Below are positions 1-13,840 of a DNA stretch of 13,840 nucleotides, piece after piece. Source of the DNA: a virus (Duplodnaviria; Heunggongvirae; Uroviricota; Caudoviricetes). The stretch lies in the IMG/VR virus record IMGVR_UViG_2698536366_000004. One strand, given 5' to 3'. Numbering within the stretch: position 1 is the stretch's first letter; every line of letters begins with the position of its first letter. The notes under the pieces were generated by a model, which saw nothing but the letters and a program-made list of their open reading frames with translations, was not told where the DNA came from and searched no databases. Both the position numbers and the translations under genes were made by a program.

Positions 1-367
1 CCTCAAAAACACCATCATACACTAAATCAGTAAGTTGGCAGCATCACCAGCCTTCTTGAGGCTACCACCTGTTTTCAGGTGTCATTCAGACGTGATTTGC
101 CCCAGATTGGGAAAGCACGCTTTTTTCTCAGCTATCGTCCTCTTATTTTGCCGTTACATTTCTTTTTGCATTCTAATGATTAATTTACAATAATAATATC
201 GGTAATTATTGAGTAATAATAAATTAATTATTGCAAATGTAATTTAATTCCATCTTCGCGTTATATTCCAATCTTTAATCTCCGCATGGAACAAGTTGCA
301 TGCGTGACTATATTAAGACGACTTATAACCACCAAAACATTTGCTTTGCAAGCAAAAACAGTGACCA

Positions 368-396
368 TTGACTCTAAGAAAATTCCGATCTATTGT
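368..396 (+). promoter_or_regulatory. Candidate sigma70-like promoter (TTGACT - 17 nt - TATTGT) in the AT-rich island
   Basis: ttgact at 368-373, 17-nt spacer, tattgt at 391-396; it lies upstream of a small hydrophobic ORF and a plus-strand terminator. AT-rich DNA produces many chance promoter-like matches, so this is weak. Confidence 0.2.
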
Positions 397-430
397 TAGG
401 GTCATCAAAGTTACTTAACAGTATTCCGAA

Positions 431-532
431 ATGAAAATACAAAGCAAGCTAATTGTCTTATTAAACATTATTATTGCATTTATATTATTTGAGCTTTTAG
501 CTCAAAAATTTGGTTTGAGTACATTATTTTAA
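431..532 (+). CDS. Hypothetical 33-aa hydrophobic peptide (MKIQSKLIVLLNIIIAFILFELLAQKFGLSTLF)
   Basis: ATG at 431, TAA at 530-532. Basic N-terminus followed by a ~20-residue hydrophobic stretch resembles a single-pass membrane peptide. No convincing Shine-Dalgarno upstream and it is below the ORF-track length cutoff. Confidence 0.2.
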   Translation: MKIQSKLIVLLNIIIAFILFELLAQKFGLSTLF

Positions 533-681
533 AGCAAGATAAACAATATCGGGCACTCTAGTTTTTATAATTAACAATTAAACGTCCATAAAATGTTATT
601 TACTTTTCTTCGCTATTGTCATATCTTAATATAGTGGCTTACGCCACTCTACTTTCATCACATTTTGTACGTTTATGTACT

Positions 682-714
682 CGCCATGAAGCTCTTTCAT
701 GGCGATTTTTTATT
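682..714 (+). terminator. Rho-independent terminator, plus-strand orientation
   Basis: Perfect 9-bp stem cgccatgaa (682-690) / ttcatggcg (696-704) with 5-nt loop, followed by attttttatt (705-714). No comparable T-run on the minus strand, so it would end a plus-strand transcript arriving from the AT-rich island. Confidence 0.55.
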
Positions 715-797
715 CTTAATCCAAGAACATACTCCCTACCTATAGCAAAATCACTTTTTTAACAAAAGAATAACGTATTTAGGTAATCATTACGAAT

Positions 798-1379
798 TTA
801 CCCTATAGGTGCTACTGGCCATTCAATATCCGGTGCAGTTGATGTATCAACACGGTTCAGCAACACCCGATACTTTTTCCAAGCTTCCAGCAACAAGGTT
901 TCTTTCTCCGTTGCGATCTCCAGATCCACAGCATCCTGAAGCGGCGCTATATGCTCACTGGCTACCTGCATCAGGCTGTTTTTTGTTTCTTCCGCCTCCC
1001 GGATCCGGAACAGTTTTTCTGCTTCCGTATCCTTCACCCAGGCTGTGCCGTTCCACTTCTGAAACTCCCCTTCCGGGGATAACCAGGTGACATTTTCCGG
1101 TAATGAGCCGAGTTCAGAAATAAATAACGCGTCGCCGGAAGCCACGTCATAAACCGTTTTACCCCGATGATCTTCAACGAGATGCCACGATGACTCATCA
1201 CTGTTGAAAACAGCCACGAAACCAGCCGGAATATCTGGCGGTGCAATATCGGTACTGTTTGCAGGCAGACCTGTATGAGGCGGAATATATGCGTCACCTT
1301 CACCAATAAATTCATTAGTTCCGGCCAGCAGGTTATAAATTTTTATGGTCCGTGCTTGTTCACTCATTCTGAATGCCAT
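798..1379 (-). CDS. tfa: Tail fibre assembly protein Tfa (193 aa)
   Basis: ORF starts [44 protein letters not shown], near-identical over its length to phage lambda Tfa as I recall it. Its ATG overlaps the stf stop (TAATG), and it is in the canonical position after stf. Confidence 0.92.
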
Positions 1380-4300
1380 TATGCGAGCCTCACAATATAG
1401 TTAAATGCGATGTTTTTGACGGTGTTTTCCGCGTTACCAGCAGCGTTAACGGTGATGGTGTGTCCATGTGAACCAATCGCAACAGAGTGCGTATGAGCAC
1501 CAATACCGACAGTATGCGCGTGTGCACCCGCAGATGCTGCTGTGCCGGACAGTGAGTGTGTATGGTTTCCTTCTGAAGATGATTTACCTACCCATTGGGA
1601 GGTGCCACTGGTTAATGAGCCACTGATACCAACCTGATTAGTCCCGCTAACTTGAGTACTCCCTGCCGGAAACATTCCAGTAGGTTGACTCCCGCTATTC
1701 GTTCTGGGCCCAGTCTGACTATGTTGGTGGGCCCCAGCTGAACTTGTAGAGCCGCTCAGACTGTGCGTATGCGCCCCGGTGTTATTCGTGGATTTAGTGC
1801 CGTAATCAAACGACGATGTGGTTTTCGTCCCCAAATCCGTACTGGATGCGCTGGCGCTGTGGGTGTGCGATTTAATGCCATCCTGTTCCTGAGACAATAC
1901 GGCACGACCACTGGCGGGCTTGCCCTTAATCGTCCAGCCACGCATATCAGGGATCACGCCTGACGGATAAGCGGCTGCAAGTTTCGGGTAAGCAGATTTG
2001 TCAAAAGTCTGCCCCTGCATCAGGGCATAACCAGACGGAACGGTATCTGATGGCCACGGGATTGGTGCACCGACTGGATAAAACTCTGCAGGAGGATGAG
2101 CCGAGGTGTAAAGCTGCGCCCACGGCGACCAGTTTGCGTCGGTCGTATCCCGTCGTGAACGAATAAATGCCGGAGCATGAGCACCGCTTGTACCACTCCA
2201 GCCGATGAGTAACTCACCTTCGCCAACGGCTGTCATCCCTTTCAGGTGAATGATATTTCCATACGCTGTTGGATATCCGTTGTTATACACCTCGTATAAC
2301 TCAAGACCTGCTGCCCCCTGCGTATTGTCTGTCAGCGCGGCTACCCGACCTTTTGAAGCCAGATTAACTGATGATACTGCTGTTCCACCTGACGGTAGCG
2401 CCCCGATCTCTGATGCCGTTGGCTTATTTCTGGAGTTATAGTCCCTTCGCCAGCCAGGTGAATAATCTGTTCCGTGATTAATATAGGTAAACTGGGCGTT
2501 GGTTGTTCCGCCACCGCTGGATGTGGTCGGAGTGGTAATGCGGATCGTCATCGCTGACTTTATCCCCATTACTTCAATGACAGCTCCGGCGAGATGAATA
2601 TTACCGCAGCCAGTATCAGTAATGATTTTATTATTGCCATAAGACCAGGAACCCTTGCACATCCAGTATGGATGGTTAAATGCTCCCTGAGAATCCAGCC
2701 ACTCGATAAACTGTGCAGTCGTCCAGTTTCCTGTTGTTGTGCTTACTGACCCACCGAAGGCACGGCAGGCACCAATATTTTTCGTAAAGGTGTCTTTGCC
2801 AGGGATATCCGCACCGTTCTGATCTTTCTGCAGACGTTTCTCAGCATTGTCATTGGCTGCTTTTACTGCCTTTGGCGTTGCCGCCAGCGTTTCAGACGTG
2901 CTGTTGGTCGCGCTGCTTAGCTGGATTATCCCTTTCTGTGCTGTCGTTGCATCCTGTGCGGTGTATTTCCCGTTAGCCAGGTCATACGCGGCCTTAACGG
3001 CTTTTGGTGTTGCCGCCAGTGACTCGGAAGTGCTGTTAGTCGCACTACTGAGCTGTACTATCCCCTTTTTCGTCGTGCTCGCATCCTCAAGCGCCACGGC
3101 GGATGCAATATCCTCTGCCCGTTTTGCCGCTGTCTCAGCGCGCGTTGCTGCAGATTCCGCCGTACTTTTGCTCTGAGCTGCTGCCGTCGCACTACCAGCA
3201 GCCTCTGTCGCCTTCGTGGATGCCGTCGTGGCGCTGCCCTTCGCTGCTGACGCCTGTCTGGTCGCCTCATCTTTTGAAGCAGACGCCGATGATGCCGATG
3301 ACGCCGCCGAACTGGCGGACGATGCGGCAGCCGTTTTTGAGGATTCTGCACGGGTTTCCGACGCTTTCGCGTTCGTTTCGGATGTCTTCGCTGCGGAAGC
3401 TGACCTCGCTGCTGCCGTGGCCTGCTCAGTGGCTTCGCCAGCCTTCGTTGTGGCTGTTGAAGCGGATGATGCGGCGCTTTCTGCCGATTTTCCGGCGGCG
3501 GTGGCACTGGCTGAGGCCTGCCCGGCACTTGTTGACGCGGCGCTGGCAGACGACGCAGCCGCTGTTTTTGAGCCTGCCGCAGCTGAGGCACTCTGTCCCG
3601 CTGCCGTTTCAGAAGACCTGGCGTTCGTCTCGGACGTTTTGGCCGCCTTCGCAGAATTTGCAGCCGCCGTCGCCGAGGAAGCTGCGCTACTGGCGCTTGA
3701 TGATGCGTTCGTTTCTGATGATTTTGCCGCCTCTTTTGAAGCCGACGCATCCCGGGCTGAGGTGGCAGCTTCTGACGCTTTCGTGGTCGCGGTGGATGCA
3801 GAAGTGGCTGCTGATTGTTGTGACGCTGCCGCATTCGTTTCTAACGTTTTCGCCGCACCGGCACTGGTAGCCGCCGCGCTTTTTGAGGACTCTGCAGCGG
3901 CAGCACTTTTTGAGGCTTCAGTGGCCTTTGTTGATGCCGTTCCTGCGCTGGAAGACGCTGACTGAGCCGACGAAGCGGCCTGTCCGGCTGACGTGCTGGC
4001 TGCACGTGCTGAATCTGCAGCATCAGTCGCATGGGTTGCCGCCTCACGGGCTGATGTGCTGGCATCGCTGGCTGATTTCTTCGCGGCTGCCGTGTTCTGT
4101 GCCACCGCGGACGCGTTACGCGCCACCTCTTCCACCATCAGCTCAAAACGGCGCAGTGCCTCCGGACGGGCATCATCCTCCGTCATGGCACCGAGAAAAT
4201 CATTCAGCGTACCGGGTCGGGAATCTTCATACACGGTGATGGTCCCGGCATGTGACGGCGGGAATCCTTCCACCAACAGAATAACGCTGTACTGACCGTA

Positions 4301-4462
4301 CTCAACGTCCATGCTGTAACGCCCGGCTTCATCCGGATTTTCTGAGGCCAGCGTGTTCACCACCACCGTGGTGCTGTTACGTTTTGCTTTCAGCTGGATT
4401 GTGCAGTTCTGTACCGGTTTTCCTGTGCCGTCTTTCAGTACACCTGAAATCTTTACTGCCAT
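1379..4462 (-). CDS. stf: Side tail fibre protein Stf (about 1027 aa from the ATG at 4460-4462; the track's GTG at 4466-4468 adds 2 codons)
   Basis: N-terminus [26 protein letters not shown] matches lambda Stf. Long Ala/Ser/Thr-rich low-complexity shaft, duplicated [26 protein letters not shown] tail-fibre motif, and His-rich GAHxHS C-terminal repeats ending [11 protein letters not shown] as in lambda Stf. GGGGTGA Shine-Dalgarno-like sequence upstream of the ATG. Confidence 0.9.
2857..3070 (-). repeat. Two ~80-bp direct repeats inside stf encoding the duplicated tail-fibre motif
   Basis: Segments ~2857-2938 and ~2988-3070 are highly similar at DNA level and encode [28 protein letters not shown] and [28 protein letters not shown]. 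Confidence 0.6.
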
Positions 4463-4473
4463 ATTCACCCCAC

Positions 4474-4500: not shown

Positions 4501-4560
4501 GTCATAACACTGTGTTACCTGGCTAATCAGAATTTATAACCGACACCCACGATGAAACCG

Positions 4561-5043
4561 TCAGTGCGCCAGAGACGTGTTGCTGTGGCGACCGTCATCA
4601 CTTCCGGTCAGCACATCGTGCGTTTTCCCCTTATTGTCAGTTACGCGGATATAATCCCCGGAAAAAGTCGACACACGGCTGTAAGCCACACCCGCCATCG
4701 CATACGCGCTGAACCATTCATTCACGCGCACAGACGGCCCCGCCATCACGCTGAACCAGCGGTTACGCACGGAATCTTCATGCCAGCGGGTATCGCTGTA
4801 ACGGGTCAGCTGGCGATTCTTGTCTCCTGCATAGCTGAATGACGTCACCAGCCCCAGCGTATCCGTAAACTCATAACGGTATTTCACGTTAATCCCGTTC
4901 AGATCATCACTGCCGGGAACGTTGGTCCGGGCATGAAGATACCCCGCGCTCAGCGTGGACTGATGTTCAGACGCCCATGCAGGCGCACCGGATACGGCCA
5001 GACAGATGGCTGCGGACAAAATGGCTGCACAAACTTTACGCAT
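4561..5043 (-). pseudogene. lom copy 1: Lom/Ail/PagC-family outer membrane protein gene disrupted by an 83-bp internal deletion (frameshift, 160-aa product)
   Basis: Signal peptide and first ~150 residues match lambda Lom. Compared with intact copy 2, the 83 nt between two cgccag hexamers (copy-2 coordinates 7940-8022) are missing, so the frame shifts and the product ends ...NTSLAH. The original GVGYKF-stop codons are still present out of frame at about 4527-4547. Confidence 0.75.
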
Positions 5044-5063
5044 AATTACCTCTCGCTTTTCTG

Positions 5064-5091
5064 CAATAAAAAAGGCGTCATTCCTGACGCC
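5064..5091 (-). terminator. Rho-independent terminator between the J1 fragment and lom copy 1
   Basis: Stem ggcgtca (5074-5080) / tgacgcc (5085-5091) with 4-nt loop; the minus-strand hairpin is followed by TTTTTTATT. A GAGAGG Shine-Dalgarno for lom follows. Confidence 0.55.
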
Positions 5092-5113
5092 ATTTATTGG
5101 GGTTATAAATATT

Positions 5114-7417
5114 TCAACGAATACTGATGCCGGAAGCCGCTTTTTTGGTCACAATCACCGTACAGTCGGTGATATTGCCTGCCCCCTGATTGCCTTTCTG
5201 GAAAATCTTAAACTCCAGAGTGACGCTACCACCACCACTAGGCATATCAATAACTGCACTGTAACTACCGGGAATGGCACCTTTAGTTTCTCTGGATGCG
5301 ATTAATACGCCGTTTTTGCGAACTTCAAAACCATAACCCGTGTATCGCGTGCCTCCTGGGTTATTTCCGCTCCCCGGATCGTCATACGCTATACCGTTAA
5401 AAATAATGGGCGGAATAATAATCTGGCGGTCAAAGTTATGATCATCGCTTATGGTGACTGTAACCGTCCCGTTTGGTGTTTCCGTGTTACCCCACGTACC
5501 AGCCTGTTTCGGAAATGATTTGGATACAGCTTTAACGAAGTCACCTCTGACCTGAGTCGCCTCCAGCATGCCCTTAATCGTACAGTTTTCATTTACCGTG
5601 ACATTGTTGAGCGTCCCGGCGTTCGCATTCACACTGCCACTGATATCCGCATTTTTAGCGGTCAGCTTTCCGTCCGGAGTCAGGGAAAATGCCGATGGAT
5701 TTCCACCGCTGGTAATGGTGGGGGCCGTCAGGCGTTTCAGGAACACGTCGTTCATGAATATCTGATCGCCCTGACCAACAAACATCGGTTTTGTGTTGCC
5801 ATTCGCAGGATTAACCATCGCAATCCTGTCCGCCGCCAGCAGCACCTGACTCTGCATGCCGTCAGGGGTGTTCTCAATACCGGCACCAATACCCGCGATA
5901 TAAAGGCGTCCGTCCTGCATCTGCTGCAGCTTCACAGCCCACATGCTGTTCAGGTTATTATTTGTATCAACCTGAACCTTCTGTATCTGCTGAATTGCCG
6001 CACTCTGGTCTTCCAGTTTCTTATTGACGGTCTGCGTGATTTCATTGCTGACATCCGTAATGGACGTCCTGATTTCAGCCAGGTCAGGCGCAAGCTGACC
6101 GTTATCAATCTGCGTCCACAGCTCCTGAGCCAGATGGGTTTTCCCTATCTCGCCTTTGAAAAAATCCAGATAACCGGATGCATCATCACTCGGCTGACCA
6201 ACAGCCTCCACGAATGCCGATTTGCCAACGGTGTTCACACTGCGGATATAAAAGTAATAATCATGGCCCGGTTTGATATTGATACTGGCGGCTATCCAGT
6301 ACAGCGCCGTGCCAAGATAGCGTGCTGTGGTTTCAACCTGCCTGATATCCGCAATCCGCTTTTCCGAGAACCAGAACTCAAACTGTACCGTCGGATCATA
6401 AACCGCAAGATGCGGCGTGGCGGTTATCTGAAAATAGCCCGGCGTCAGCTCAATCCGCGACAGCGCTGCCGGTGCGGCAATCCGGAACGATACCGACGCC
6501 GGATCGCCCTGCTGCCCCCACGCATTTACTGCCCGGACTGTCAGCCTGTAGTTCCCCAGCGCCAGTTGTGTGAAGCGGTAAGTGGTTTCCGTCGTCCGGG
6601 CCGTGCTGACCAGCCGCTCACTGCCGTCATCCGCTGTTACGGTCAGACGGAGCAGGAAGCTCACGCCCTTCACCACCTTCGGCGTGTCCCAGCGCGCCAG
6701 CACCTGATATTCCCCGCTGTCTGCGGTGACTTCGGCAGTCAGGTGCTGCACCGCTGGCGGCGTGACACCATTCACCGTGCCGCTCTGGTCGCCGTCAAAG
6801 TGCGCCCCGTTATCCACGATGGCTTCTTTTTCCGGCACATGCTGCACGGCGGTGATGGCATACGTGCCGTCGTCGTTCTCACGGATACTCACGCAGCGGA
6901 ACAATCGCTGGTGCAGCGTCGGCAGCTTCAGCCCCCACACGCTGTATTCAGCAACACCGTCAGGAACACGGCTCACTTTTACCTTCACGCCGTCGGTGAC
7001 GGACTGGACCTCCACGCTGACCGGATTCCCCTGCCCGTCAACCAGGCTTATCAGCGTGGTGCCGGAGGATGGCAGCGTGATTTCACGGTCGAGCGTCAGC
7101 GTCCGGGTCTGGCTGTTCACCGCCAGCACGCGCCCGCCGGTGCGGATACCGGCATAGTCATCATCGCAGATTTCAATGACATCGCCCGGTACATGACGAA
7201 GCCCTTCAGCACCCACGCTGAAATCCACGGTCTGCGTCTCCAGCAGTTCCGTTTTAATCAGCCACAGCCCGGCAGTCTTTCTGGCTGGCGGTTCAGGGTA
7301 TTTGAGGTAGCGTCTGACCGTCCGTTCAGAGCAACCAATCTGAGTCGCAATATCGACGATGTACGCGCCCTGCTGGCGCATTTGCTTTATCATGTAAAAG
7401 TCCTCTCTGCTCAGCAT
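5114..7417 (-). CDS. Chimeric ORF (767 aa): 48-aa helix-turn-helix N-terminus of an IS21-family IstA-like transposase fused in frame to the C-terminal ~719 aa of host specificity protein J, with receptor-binding C-terminus variant A
   Basis: N-terminus [48 protein letters not shown] has a classic HTH and matches my memory of the IS21 IstA start. From [14 protein letters not shown] onward it is collinear with J; DNA homology to full J ends at 7273/7274. It has its own ATG (7415-7417) preceded by AGGA at 7-nt spacing. The last ~150 aa are unrelated to the C-terminus of copies 2 and 3. Confidence 0.7.
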
Positions 7418-7893: not shown

Positions 7894-8493
7894 TCAGAAC
7901 TTATAACCGACACCCACGATGAAACCGTCAGTGCGCCAGTCACCACTGCCGGAACCTTCATAAGCAAGGTCAATGGCCACGGATTCGGTCGGGTTAAACT
8001 GCACGCCAGCCCCCCACGCCAGAGACGTGTTGCTGTGGCGACCGCCATCACTTCCGGTCAGCACATCGTGCGTTTTCCCCTTGTTGTCAGTTACGCGGAG
8101 ATAATCCCCGGAGAAGGTCGACACACGGCTGTAAGCCACGCCCGCCATCGCATACGCGCTGAACCATTCATTCACGCGCACAGACGGCCCCGCCATCACG
8201 CTGAACCAGCGGTTACGCACGGAATCCTCATGCCAGCGGGTATCGCTGTAATGCGTTTTTTGCTCATCTTCAGCGTTGGCATAACTGAATGACGTAATCA
8301 GCCCCAGCGTGTCCGTAAACTCATAACGGTATTTCACGTTAATGCCCTTCAGGTCATCGCTGCCTGGCATATCAGTATGGGTCTGAAGATACCCGGCGCT
8401 CAGCGTGGACTGATGTTCAGACGCCCATGCAGGCGCACCGGATACGGCCAGACAGATGGCTGCGGACAAAATGGCTGCACAAACTTTACGCAT
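7894..8493 (-). CDS. lom: Lom outer membrane protein, intact (199 aa; Lom/Ail/PagC/OmpX family)
   Basis: Signal peptide MRKVCAAILSAAICLAVSGAPAWA followed by a mature beta-barrel sequence ending GFIVGVGYKF, collinear with lambda Lom. GAGAGG Shine-Dalgarno 7 nt upstream of the ATG. Confidence 0.9.
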   Translation of the reverse strand: MRKVCAAILSAAICLAVSGAPAWASEHQSTLSAGYLQTHTDMPGSDDLKGINVKYRYEFTDTLGLITSFSYANAEDEQKTHYSDTRWHEDSVRNRWFSVMAGPSVRVNEWFSAYAMAGVAYSRVSTFSGDYLRVTDNKGKTHDVLTGSDGGRHSNTSLAWGAGVQFNPTESVAIDLAYEGSGSGDWRTDGFIVGVGYKF

Positions 8494-8560: not shown

Positions 8561-10455
8561 TCAGCTAATCGTGATGCCTGCAGTGGCTTTCTTCATCACC
8601 ACAACCAGCAAATCGCTGATACTTGCTGTGGGATACCAGCCATTTACCAGCCATGCCGATACAGAAAACTCCAGCGTCATGTGACCGTGACCGGCAGGCA
8701 TATCAATAACACCCGTATATATCAGCGTATTATCCAGGGTCGTTCGGTTATAAATTTCAGCACCGTTTTTCTTCACTATCAGGCGGCATGACGAATAAAT
8801 ATTGTTATTCTTCCGCTCATGTTTAGCACCGCGAAACGCCACCGCGGGAATAACAATTTGCCGATCAAACGGCTGATCGTCATAAACCCTGACGGTAATG
8901 GTCCCTGATGGCCACCTCTCCGGTGCCCGGGAGTCCCGTGGGAAAGGTTTGCCCACTGTTTTAACGAGATCGCCTTCAATCTGGTTCGCGGACAATTTTC
9001 CCAGAACCCGACAGTTCTTATTAATCGTGACGTTGTTGAGCGTCCCGGAGTTCGCGTTCACGTTACCGCTGATATCGGCATTTTTCGCCGTCAGCCGTCC
9101 GCCAGGTGTCAGGGAAAATGCCGGAGGATTACCGCCGCTGGTAATGGTCGGAGCCGTCAGGCATTTCAGGAACACGTCGTTCATGAATATCTGATCGCCC
9201 TGACCAACAAACATCGGCTTTGTGTTGCCATTCGCAGGATTAATCATCGCAATCCTGTCTGCCGCCAGCAGCACCTGACTCTGCATTCCTGCTGGCGTAT
9301 TCTCAATACCGGCACCGATACCCGCAATATAAAGGCGTCCGTCCTTCATCTGTTGCAGCTTCACAGCCCACATGCTGTTCAGGTTATTATTTGTATCAAC
9401 CTGAACTTTCTGTATCTGCTGGATTGCAGCACTCTGATTTTCCAGTTTTTTATTGACGGTTTGCGTGATTTCATTGCTGACATTCGTAATGGACGTCCTG
9501 ATTTCAGTCAGGTCCGGCGCAAGCTGACCGTTATCAATCTGCGTCCACAACTCCTTGCCGAGATGCGTTTTATTGATCAACCCTTTATAAAAATTCAGAT
9601 AACCTTCTGCATCATCGCTCGCCCGACCGATGGCCTCCACAAATGCCGATTTGCCAACGGTGTTCACACTGCGAACGTAAAAATAATAATCATGGCCCGG
9701 CCTGATATTGATACTGGCGGCTATCCAGTACAGCGCCGTGCCAAGATAGCGGGCGCTGGTTTCAACCTGCCTGATATCCGCAATCCGCTTTTCCGAAAAC
9801 CAGAACTCAAACTGCACCGTCGGGTCATATACAGCCAGTTTCGGGACCGCCGTTATCTGAAAATACCCCGGTATCAGTTCAATAGTGACAGGCGCTGCCG
9901 GTGCCGCAATCCGGAACGATACCGACGCCGGATCGCCCTGCTGCCCCCACGCATTTACTGCCCGGACTGTCAGCCTGTAGTTCCCCAGCGCCAGTTGTGT
10001 GAAGCGGTAAGTGGTTTCCGTCGTCCGGGCCGTGCTGACCAGCCGCTCACTGCCGTCATCCGCTGTTACGGTCAGACGGAGCAGGAAGCTCACGCCCTTC
10101 ACCACCTTCGGCGTGTCCCAGCGCGCCAGCACCTGATATTCCCCGCTGTCTGCGGTGACTTCGGCGGTCAGATGCTGCACCGCTGGCGGCGTGACACCAT
10201 TCACCGTGCCGCTCTGGTCGCCGTCAAAGTGCGCCCCGTTATCCACGATGGCTTCTTTTTCCGGCACATGCTGCACGGCGGTGATGGCATACGTGCCGTC
10301 GTCGTTCTCACGGATACTCACGCAGCGGAACAGACGCTGGCGCAGCGTCGGCAGCTTCAGCCCCCACACGCTGTATTCTGCAACGCCGTCAGGAACACGG
10401 CTCACTTTTACCTTCACGCCGTCGGTGACGGACTGGACCTCCACGCTGACCGGAA
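8561..10455 (-). pseudogene. 5'-truncated host specificity protein J fragment (J2; C-terminal ~626 codons, receptor-binding variant B), no native start
   Basis: Collinear with the C-terminal 626 aa of full J. It begins mid-gene at VEVQSVTDG directly at the junction with truncated lom copy 3 (10455/10456). The track's start is a GTG with no evident Shine-Dalgarno. Confidence 0.75.
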
Positions 10456-10896
10456 TCCGGTCAGCACATCGTGCGTTTTCCCCTTGTTGTCAGTTACGCG
10501 GAGATAATCCCCGGAGAAGGTCGACACACGGCTGTAAGCCACGCCCGCCATCGCATACGCGCTGAACCATTCATTCACGCGCACAGACGGCCCCGCCATC
10601 ACGCTGAACCAGCGGTTACGCACGGAATCCTCATGCCAGCGGGTATCGCTGTAATGCGTTTTTTGCTCATCTTCAGCGTTGGCATAACTGAATGACGTAA
10701 TCAGCCCCAGCGTGTCCGTAAACTCATAACGGTATTTCACGTTAATGCCCTTCAGGTCATCGCTGCCTGGCATATCAGTATGGGTCTGAAGATACCCGGC
10801 GCTCAGCGTGGACTGATGTTCAGACGCCCATGCAGGCGCACCGGATACGGCCAGACAGATGGCTGCGGACAAAATGGCTGCACAAACTTTACGCAT
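10414..10896 (-). pseudogene. lom copy 3, 3'-truncated: first ~147 codons of lom joined at 10455/10456 to J-derived sequence, reading through 13 out-of-frame codons
   Basis: Identical to lom copy 2 from the start codon through ...DVLTG, then [13 protein letters not shown]-stop encoded by J-derived DNA. Lacks the C-terminal beta-strands. Confidence 0.75.
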
Positions 10897-10963: not shown

Positions 10964-13840
10964 TCAGCTAATCGTGATGCCTGCAGTGGCTTTCTTCATC
11001 ACCACAACCAGCAAATCGCTGATACTTGCTGTGGGATACCAGCCATTTACCAGCCATGCCGATACAGAAAACTCCAGCGTCATGTGACCGTGACCGGCAG
11101 GCATATCAATAACACCCGTATATATCAGCGTATTATCCAGGGTCGTTCGGTTATAAATTTCAGCACCGTTTTTCTTCACTATCAGGCGGCATGACGAATA
11201 AATATTGTTATTCTTCCGCTCATGTTTAGCACCGCGAAACGCCACCGCGGGAATAACAATTTGCCGATCAAACGGCTGATCGTCATAAACCCTGACGGTA
11301 ATGGTCCCTGATGGCCACCTCTCCGGTGCCCGGGAGTCCCGTGGGAAAGGTTTGCCCACTGTTTTAACGAGATCGCCTTCAATCTGGTTCGCGGACAATT
11401 TTCCCAGAACCCGACAGTTCTTATTAATCGTGACGTTGTTGAGCGTCCCGGAGTTCGCGTTCACGTTACCGCTGATATCGGCATTTTTCGCCGTCAGCCG
11501 TCCGCCAGGTGTCAGGGAAAATGCCGGAGGATTACCGCCGCTGGTAATGGTCGGAGCCGTCAGGCATTTCAGGAACACGTCGTTCATGAATATCTGATCG
11601 CCCTGACCAACAAACATCGGCTTTGTGTTGCCATTCGCAGGATTAATCATCGCAATCCTGTCTGCCGCCAGCAGCACCTGACTCTGCATTCCTGCTGGCG
11701 TATTCTCAATACCGGCACCGATACCCGCAATATAAAGGCGTCCGTCCTTCATCTGTTGCAGCTTCACAGCCCACATGCTGTTCAGGTTATTATTTGTATC
11801 AACCTGAACTTTCTGTATCTGCTGGATTGCAGCACTCTGATTTTCCAGTTTTTTATTGACGGTTTGCGTGATTTCATTGCTGACATTCGTAATGGACGTC
11901 CTGATTTCAGTCAGGTCCGGCGCAAGCTGACCGTTATCAATCTGCGTCCACAACTCCTTGCCGAGATGCGTTTTATTGATCAACCCTTTATAAAAATTCA
12001 GATAACCTTCTGCATCATCGCTCGCCCGACCGATGGCCTCCACAAATGCCGATTTGCCAACGGTGTTCACACTGCGAACGTAAAAATAATAATCATGGCC
12101 CGGCCTGATATTGATACTGGCGGCTATCCAGTACAGCGCCGTGCCAAGATAGCGGGCGCTGGTTTCAACCTGCCTGATATCCGCAATCCGCTTTTCCGAA
12201 AACCAGAACTCAAACTGCACCGTCGGGTCATATACAGCCAGTTTCGGGACCGCCGTTATCTGAAAATACCCCGGTATCAGTTCAATAGTGACAGGCGCTG
12301 CCGGTGCCGCAATCCGGAACGATACCGACGCCGGATCGCCCTGCTGCCCCCGGGCATTTACCGCCCGGACTGTCAGACTGTAATTCCCCAGCGCCAGCTG
12401 CCTGAAGCGGTATGTGGTTTCCGTCGTCCTGGCTGTGCTGACCAGCCGCTCACTGCCGTCGTCCGCTGCCACGGTCAGGCGAAGCAGGAAGCTCACACCC
12501 TTCACCACCTTCGGCGTGTCCCATCGCGCCAGCACCTGATATTCCCCGCTGTCTGCGGTGACTTCGGCGGTCAGATGCTGCACCGCTGGCGGCGTGACAC
12601 CATTCACCGTGCCGCGCCGGTCACCGTCAAAGTGTGCCCCGTTATCCACGATGGCCTCTTTTTCCGGCACATGCTGCACGGCGGTGATGGCATACGTGCC
12701 GTCGTCGTTCTCACGGATACTCACGCAGCGGAACAATCGCTGGTGCAGCGTCGGCAGCTTCAGCCCCCACACGCTGTATTCTGCAACGCCGTCAGGAACC
12801 CGGCTCACTTTCACCTTCACGCCGTCGGTGACGGACTGGACCTCCACGCTGACCGGATTGCCACTTCCGTCAACCAGGCTTATCAGCGTGGTACCGGAGG
12901 ACGGCAGCGTGATTTCACGGTCGAGCGTCAGCGTCCGGGTCTGGCTGTTCACCGCCAGTACGCGACCACCGGTGCTGATACCGGCATAATCATCATCGCA
13001 GATTTCAATGACATCACCCGGTACATGGCGAAGCCCTTCTGCGCCCACGCTGAAGTCCACGGTCTGCGTTTCCAGCAGTTCCGTTTTAATCAGCCACAGC
13101 CCGGCTCGGTGTGCCTGCCCCCGGCTGGTACAGCCAAAGGCATCCATCTTCGTGACATTACGACCGTAACGGGCAATGGCCTGCGTATCCTCCACAAGCT
13201 CTGTCGCCGTCTCCCAGCCGTTATCTGGGTCAATCCAGTTCACCTCAACGGCATTATGGCGGTCCTTCAGGGCGCTGAAGCTGTAGCGGAACGGCGCGCC
13301 ATCGTCCGGCATCACCACATTACTGCGGTTATAGGTCCACACCTTATCCGACGGTCGGTCCTGCACGAACGTCAGCATCTGTCCGTTCCATACCGGCATA
13401 CAGCGCATCGCCGAGCAGAAATCACTGAGAACATCCCACGCCTTACGCTGTGTGGTCAGGTAAGAGTTACAGGTGATGCGCGGCTCCGTGCCGCCAAATC
13501 CGTCCGTCACTGACTGGTCGCAGTACTGGCCGATGACATACAGCGCCCATTTGTCCACATCTGCCGCACCAAGACGTTTCCCCATGCCGTAGCGCGGATG
13601 AGTGAGCATGTCCCACAGACACCAGGCCATGTTGTTGCTGTATGCTGGCTTAAGCGTTCCGTCCCAGATACCGCTGTATTGCCGCGTCTGCGGGTTATAG
13701 TTCGACGGCACCTGCAGAATGCGCCCGCGAAGATGATAATTGCGACTCACCTGCTGGTTACCGAACTGCTCTGAATCCACCTGCACGCCGACCAGCGCCG
13801 TGTTCGGGTAGCACTGTTTCACATCGATGATTTCGGTGTA
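10964..13840 (-). CDS. J: Host specificity protein J (tail tip / central tail fibre), 5'-partial (C-terminal ~958 codons in window), receptor-binding variant B
   Basis: Collinear with lambda J from ...[22 protein letters not shown] through the fibronectin-like repeats; the frame stays open to the window edge. The last ~150 aa differ from lambda's LamB-binding C-terminus. The track's start at 13822 is an internal GTG; the gene continues upstream beyond the window. Confidence 0.92.

Follow-up and report, generated by a model that had tools for sequence, protein, structure and literature searches.

A YncL-related small gene in a putative accessory cassette beside tfa in lambdoid prophages of Escherichia coli

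Functions are just beginning to be assigned to small membrane proteins such as YncL and YohP, and they include mild depolarisation, nucleoid condensation and metabolic silencing. YncL (b4598) of Escherichia coli K-12 is a stress-response inner-membrane protein of 31 amino acids (MNVSSRTVVLINFFAAVGLFTLISMRFGWFI); it is encoded by a stand-alone monocistronic gene with its own promoter and terminator, found in the order patD-yncL-ortT on the K-12 chromosome, and the Salmonella orthologue of yncL is the transcript STnc1110. Cells that produce YncL have a depolarised membrane and a condensed nucleoid and become sensitised to pore-forming peptides, and early production of the protein lowers both viability and membrane potential (PMC12542507). 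The level of YncL goes up on heat shock and in minimal medium and is RpoS-dependent in Salmonella (PMC12542507, PMC5437024), and the protein is a candidate for cleavage by the RseP protease in vivo, which is unconfirmed in vitro (PMC10470546). Here we describe a small gene of lambdoid prophages whose predicted product appears to be a distant relative of YncL.

The type of genetic element in which this gene is found also has precedents. Hendrix and colleagues reportedly defined morons as autonomous promoter-gene-terminator cassettes of lambdoid phages, lom, bor and cor being examples. Among membrane peptides, the type I toxins HokD, TisB, ZorO and DinQ, which come from prophages and chromosomes, are small, have a single helix, reside in the inner membrane and are able to lower the membrane potential. 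Finally, the 37 amino acid hydrophobic protein YnaM is encoded near the right end of the Rac prophage of K-12, in the corresponding interval from the tail-fibre genes to the end of the prophage; it has no evident similarity by eye to the peptide described below, and the interval in Rac also contains pinR and ynaE.

The window, by which we mean the whole stretch of 13,840 nucleotides that was analysed (IMG/VR record IMGVR_UViG_2698536366_000004), has all of its large ORFs on the minus strand. The last gene of the phage late operon is tfa (tail fibre assembly; 798-1379, minus strand), which matches Pfam Caudo_TAP with an E value of 4.6e-44 and is annotated as such by RefSeq in two related loci, L001 and L002, each from a prophage at the lambda attachment site. 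A tail fibre gene lies at 1379-4468 on the same strand. Beyond tfa the G+C content falls to 0.25-0.32 over approximately positions 100-800, compared with 0.45-0.56 in the tail genes. A sequence-only reading of this DNA had described an AT-rich, non-coding island at 130-714 in the place where lambdoid prophages carry accessory cargo. The composition and the position were both correctly described, this being the cargo slot at the tail-fibre end of lambdoid prophages, and there is indeed no ORF of at least 60 codons between 1 and 797; the extent of the island, however, needs correction, as the AT-rich stretch continues as far as the tfa stop codon at 797, and positions 1-48 at its other edge belong to an insertion sequence.

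For comparison we used relatives of the region that fall into only three sequence lineages. The closest are the loci at the lambda attachment site, of which L001 is free of IS1 and L002 has an annotated IS1A. Locus L004 is a Qin-type prophage inserted in ydfJ, where a module corresponding to window positions 220-800 follows tfaQ at approximately 96% identity. L005 is a decayed prophage remnant near trkG/sit and contains the most diverged copy of the module (79% identical), and L041 represents the third lineage. The shared module has its left boundary at approximately 220 in both L004 and L005. It begins with a conserved block on the plus strand (220-320, approximately 87% identical to L005) in which no ORF is conserved across the lineages and which is possibly regulatory.

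The sequence-only reading had pointed to an ORF of 33 codons at 431-532 on the plus strand, and this ORF (MKIQSKLIVLLNIIIAFILFELLAQKFGLSTLF) is present as described. When it was compared with its counterpart in L005, we found 18 nucleotide differences and no indel, so that some 20% of positions differ; the differences are distributed 7/1/10 over the three codon positions. Eleven are synonymous and seven non-synonymous (pS 0.56, pN 0.088), which gives a dN/dS of about 0.09 with a Fisher p value of 2e-5, values that derive from only three lineages and hence from few independent changes. The replacements in L005 are V9I, I15F, F17L, E21K and S30Y, and the ORF of L041 shows four further synonymous changes and one replacement, A24D. 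Both flanks of the ORF have acquired indels relative to L005, for example a 5-nt deletion that falls right after the stop codon and preserves it, and an in-frame stop codon upstream of the ORF sits at the same place in the window and in L005. We conclude that this pattern of substitution shows the predicted coding sequence to be under purifying selection as such.

To avoid selecting for the ORF, we also searched a collection of viral contigs with the terminator sequence alone. This recovered 46 contigs, and an intact ORF was found in all 44 that could be evaluated, 249-250 nt upstream of the match to the anchor; the two others are interrupted by the end of a contig or by an IS1 insertion. Conservation of the ORF in related prophages, which had been put forward as a check on the reading, is seen at these loci. 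The start codon is not preceded by a Shine-Dalgarno sequence in any of the lineages. Other short ORFs in the region were considered and rejected. The only other ORF that is kept in all lineages, one of 24 codons on the minus strand at 626-700, has every one of its differences altering an amino acid, and L004 and L005 lack both of the plus-strand ORFs (286-399 and 300-371) and read ACG in place of the ATG at 286. We did note a variant of the peptide from a metagenome (P0003, 43 amino acids) that diverges from residue 27 onwards, at the position of the A-run CAAAAATTT of the window sequence, as could be expected of a rare frameshift allele at the run.

The predicted peptide gave a single match in NCBIfam, to NF000537, 'stress response membrane protein YncL' (E 1.3e-5, 25.0 bits), with an alignment that covers positions 1-28 of the 30 in the profile. 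Two natural variants of the peptide matched the same profile with 23.5 and 22.5 bits, and no match was obtained with the reversed sequence or with seven shuffled versions of it. A precomputed match of the exact peptide to Pfam PF28073 (YncL) is also recorded, as a weak one, in a gene-position index. In a BLASTP comparison with K-12 YncL, residues 1-28 of the two proteins align collinearly and without gaps, with 11 of 28 residues identical (39%) and 18 of 28 positive (64%; E 2e-7). It can be seen that they share the pattern M-x-x-x-S-[KR]-x-x-V-L-x-N-x-x-x-A-x-x-L-F-x-L-x-x-x-[KR]-F-G. The best 19-residue hydrophobic window is formed by residues 7-25 in both cases, with a mean Kyte-Doolittle value of 2.54 for the peptide and 2.15 for YncL. 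Basic residues lie before the predicted transmembrane helix (K2 and K6) and after it (K26, which is followed by the F and G of a K-F-G motif), in a similar fashion to R6 and R26 of YncL. The basic N-terminus and transmembrane-like core that had been read from the letters alone are thus both found.

There are also clear differences between the two genes. The score of the peptide falls below the curated equivalog cutoff of NF000537, which is 35 bits, and the gene has a different context, after tfa in a prophage rather than between patD and ortT on the chromosome; it should therefore be regarded as a distant paralogue and not as an orthologue or as YncL itself. There is no similarity at the DNA level to the yncL locus of K-12. 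A good Shine-Dalgarno sequence (AAGGTGG) precedes yncL, which has a short 3'UTR; the prophage gene lacks a Shine-Dalgarno sequence and its 3'UTR extends over approximately 180 nt. Finally, the predicted protein is longer by two residues and, unlike YncL, is encoded in only some 15% of complete E. coli genomes. Taken together, the profile and alignment evidence indicates that the ORF product is a distant, prophage-borne member of the YncL family. Other resources gave little. A phmmer search against 1.8 billion protein representatives retrieved only the peptide itself and one frameshifted variant and did not reach YncL; searches of PHROGs gave only non-significant matches (E 0.28-0.59) and hence no PHROG family, and PADLOC returned nothing. 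There is no named protein record for the peptide, its cluster has two members that are both unnamed and both from metagenomes, and no paper was found in a full-text literature search with the peptide sequence.

Upstream of the ORF is a predicted sigma-70-type promoter, TTGACT-17-TATTGT (368-396, plus strand), which was located by a consensus scan and corresponds to the element noted in the sequence-only reading. It matches the consensus at 9 of 12 positions. Such sites are common in AT-rich DNA, and since five promoter-like sites were found where 3.5 are expected, the consensus match alone is not above chance. This is, however, the only one to be kept at a homologous position in both L005, where it reads TTGACT-17-TATCGT, and L041, where it is identical; no other promoter-like site occurs in 670 bases of L005. 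It can also be seen that conservation rises from around the -35 element. The predicted start of transcription is at approximately 403, which would give a short 5'UTR that is unstructured according to fold prediction. There is a C at position -13 of the predicted -10 element, which we take as a weak hint of an RpoS-type promoter. An inverted repeat just upstream of the -35 element (TTTGCTT-TGC-AAGCAAA) was considered and set aside as it is not kept in L005.

The proximal part of the 3'UTR (533-632) is poorly conserved, L005 differing at 36 of 104 positions, including indels of -5, +1 and +4. It is followed by a conserved hairpin, AGUGGC-UUAC-GCCACU (633-648), in which the changes seen either fall in the loop or convert a pair to G-U, and by a mostly single-stranded, U/A-rich spacer (649-680) that is also conserved, with only position 661 differing in L005, compared with 20-35% of positions in the surrounding sequence. 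An intrinsic terminator occupies 681-714 on the plus strand; the stem-loop at 681-705 has 11 pairs, five of them G-C, closed by a 3-nt loop, and the U-tract (TTTTTTATT) runs from 706 to 714. The RNA from 620 to 716 folds with -27.1 kcal/mol (z = -6.7 against shuffled sequences). That a strong plus-strand terminator opposes all of the phage genes, as had been claimed, is thus confirmed. The terminator is kept in all related loci, and the substitution G691A turns a G-U pair into A-U. Its end is 83 nt short of the stop codon of tfa, the convergent neighbour.

A potential explanation for these features that would give the peptide a secondary role, or make the locus dual-function, is that the main product is an RNA, with the hairpin, spacer and terminator of the distal 3'UTR being released or acting as an Hfq-type, 3'UTR-derived sRNA. 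In the distal block (632-714) just 5 of 83 positions are different in L005, compared with 20% for the ORF and 35% for the non-coding stretches to either side, and conservation drops soon after the U-tract; a model in which only the protein is selected does not explain why the block is more conserved than the ORF at the nucleotide level. In addition, a stem-loop followed by a single-stranded U/A-rich stretch and a U-tailed terminator is the shape of many enterobacterial sRNAs, and the changes within the stems keep the pairing (C-G to U-G and G-U to A-U). Against this, not one of the 46 predicted pairs shows a double compensatory change, and Rfam has no family in the region, Infernal giving only weak, shape-level matches to MicC (E 1.5) and Esr41 (E 7.4). 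The block is also a recombination joint between the lineages, inside which L041 switches haplotype, so that recent exchange could account for its conservation. As the substitution pattern of the ORF is that of a coding sequence, RNA would not be the whole story, and the candidate of a pure sRNA that the sequence-only reading had offered is not supported. We therefore consider a mainly RNA-based locus to be unlikely, and quite unlikely, too, the more elaborate proposal in which the transcript of approximately 310 nt both encodes a YncL-like depolarising peptide that reprogrammes the host or excludes superinfecting phages and supplies 632-714 as a trans-acting sRNA.

The same reading had listed a type I toxin-like gene and the decayed remnant of a moron among its candidates. 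A type I toxin-antitoxin locus would combine a membrane toxin peptide with an antisense or nearby small RNA that holds it in check, and the small size, hydrophobicity and basic N-terminus of the peptide fit the toxin part, as does its location, given that hokD and ralR are prophage-borne type I toxin genes. The reduced viability and membrane potential of cells that make YncL early (PMC12542507) would also agree with such a role. A promoter-like site on the minus strand at 622-593 would give an RNA antisense to the ORF; however, none of the minus-strand promoter-like sites of the window is kept in L005 or L041, which, on prediction, removes the sole candidate for an antitoxin RNA, and neither an antisense nor a divergent promoter is conserved. 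The short, unstructured 5'UTR is unlike typical type I toxin leaders. A hok-like fold-back between the 5' and 3' ends appeared in the single-sequence fold, but the changes in the 5' part in L005 are not compensated, and a terminator-like hairpin at 488-506, inside the ORF, is broken in L005. In contrast to HokD, TisB, ZorO and DinQ, with which the peptide would share a single helix, an inner-membrane location and an ability to lower the membrane potential, we found no cognate antisense RNA, no structured leader and no match at the level of families, and the Rfam search gave no antitoxin family; to our knowledge no antitoxin is known for YncL either. A type I system is in our view very unlikely. 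The remaining alternative is that the region is a non-functional AT-rich spacer or a decayed gene, in which the ORF, promoter and terminator are chance features carried along with tfa. Promoter-like hexamers at about the rate expected for AT-rich DNA, an ORF that has no Shine-Dalgarno sequence, the lack of annotation in every genome and the tolerance of IS1 insertions (at window 1-48 and in L035) could all be read in this way. A spacer would not, however, be expected to show a dN/dS of 0.09 with just one of 18 differences at second codon positions, a specific match to YncL with negative controls, or an ORF that is intact at 44 of 44 loci. The cassette is, moreover, intact and nearly invariant in hundreds of genomes, and no annotated gene in 5426 genomes matches it at the DNA level, which also speaks against the decayed moron gene offered by the sequence-only reading. 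We regard this last explanation as extremely improbable.

We conclude that the window from 220 to 714 is probably an autonomous accessory cassette, or moron, of lambdoid E. coli prophages that encodes a YncL-related membrane peptide, and of the original candidates it is the small membrane peptide that is borne out, as a predicted YncL-family paralogue within an intact promoter-gene-terminator unit. According to this model, the sigma-70-type promoter at 368-396 would start a transcript of approximately 310 nt near position 403 in the lysogen, directed against the late operon. The transcript would consist of the short unstructured 5'UTR, the 33-codon ORF and the 3'UTR, ending at the terminator, which would keep transcription out of tfa. 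The peptide, if translated, would insert into the inner membrane of the lysogen by its single helix (residues 7-25) and, by analogy with YncL, may lower the membrane potential mildly. Such a depolarisation could shift the stress physiology of the host or its susceptibility to other phages.

The distribution of the cassette is that of a mobile accessory element. Window positions 49-800 (752 bases) are found at an identity of at least 99% in many complete E. coli genomes, where the carrier prophages are at the lambda attachment site and adjoin ybhB and bioA. The core (360-720) is present in 828 of the 5426 complete E. coli genomes, with up to four copies per genome; it is always chromosomal and in the 828 RefSeq genomes it never lies under an annotated feature. 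The cassette follows tfa in at least three chromosomal contexts, namely at att-lambda, in ydfJ (the Qin site) and at the trkG/sit remnant (a Rac-like site), and it is mobile between prophages. It is absent from the Rac prophage of K-12, where pinR follows tfaR instead. Cassette DNA is also present in four phage records, although a tblastn search of the phage collection with the peptide gave no match, presumably because of the low-complexity filter. Among the GTDB species representatives, a terminator scan found nothing and a degenerate ORF pattern gave one match, in a Poribacteria genome, which was taken as chance; the cassette was not found outside non-representative E. coli genomes, viral contigs and metagenome contigs. 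In L004 and L005 the cassette lies between a full or partial tfa and a tfa fragment of approximately 100 nt, which suggests that it moves between prophages by recombination within tfa. The flanking tfa 3' ends (~3880-3990 in L004 and 3892-3991 in L005) have the same orientation on both sides.

In several respects the cassette resembles the morons described above. It has its own predicted promoter and terminator, both kept at homologous positions in all three lineages; its G+C content is approximately 0.3 compared with approximately 0.5 in the neighbouring tail genes; and it sits at the tail-fibre end of the late operon, being present or absent among related prophages. Unlike classical morons, it is far smaller, would be transcribed convergently to the late operon, and has a 33 amino acid product that gene callers miss. 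Both the small-protein family and this kind of cassette were known already, and what is new here is the prophage-borne member. A YncL relative is thus mobile cargo of lambdoid prophages in about one-seventh of complete E. coli genomes and is missed by annotation pipelines and phage protein databases alike, which points to systematic under-annotation of prophages at their tail-fibre end. The gene would provide a further example of phages borrowing small-protein functions of their hosts, and it offers a natural presence/absence system in which the function of the family can be tested, as in lysogens of phage mEp332 (GenBank PV340541) that have or lack it. This is a modest addition for the small-protein field and for annotation, and not a new principle.

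The sequence on the far side of the cassette has a more complex history. In IS1-free relatives the AT-rich, unannotated stretch is approximately 1.5 kb long and spans the interval from tfa to a gene for an AraC-family regulator. In the window it is interrupted at 1-48, outside the cassette, by what we take from its terminal sequence to be the last 48 bases of an IS1 element that has inserted into the AT-rich region. In L002 the annotated IS1A transposase ends exactly where homology to window position 49 starts, and the IS is absent from L001. The AT-rich region is a repeated target of IS1, with independent insertions at two places, at window position 48 and, in L035, directly before the terminator stem. 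Positions 49-133 (plus strand) form an 85-nt module common to other prophage ends, such as the one that adjoins uspF in O157:H7, and this module matches on its own, without the remainder of the region, in many genomes; no match to it was found in K-12 Rac. If the sequence beyond the IS1 is counted, the module extends to approximately 215 nt with 96-97% identity to the end of the O157:H7 prophage at uspF (L063, 2872-3086), a prophage with DUF1076 (NleG-type) genes. Judged from these matches, the ends of different prophages seem to have been pieced together in the accessory region.

Two further elements of this region were seen in L001, beyond the IS1 and outside the window. The AraC-family regulator gene (4501-5253, minus strand; 250 amino acids, HTH_AraC and HTH_18) is additional cargo, situated between the cassette and the ybhB end of the prophage. 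The Qin-type context lacks this regulator, which is therefore not linked to the small gene. Approximately 110 nt past the IS1 junction, at 5828-5890 on the minus strand, there is a match of approximately 63 nt to the 3' part of a serine tRNA, presumably serU-like, that spans the anticodon loop to the acceptor end and lies inside the prophage accessory region. ARAGORN identified no complete tRNA in this region of L001, and Rfam found only tRNA-like pieces there. The fragment resembles what would be left of the attachment site of another integrating element.

Some additional features were noted in the tail genes. An Rfam match to IS009 (RF02111, 218 bits) at 838-1036 on the minus strand lies wholly inside the tfa coding sequence, on the coding strand. 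Further upstream in the late operon, between 4561 and 13822 on the minus strand, the C-terminal part of the tail-tip gene J and the lom gene behind it form a tandem array of three copies. The first unit consists of J (10964-13822) and a truncated lom (10414-10896), the second of J' (8561-10444) and a full lom (7894-8493), and the third of J'' (5114-7417) and another truncated lom (4561-5043). The repeats are spaced by 2403 and approximately 3430-3450 nt and the copies are 81-100% identical, while the related prophages L001 and L002 have a single J-lom-stf-tfa arrangement. Either the receptor-binding modules have really been amplified in tandem or the repeats are an artefact of assembly.
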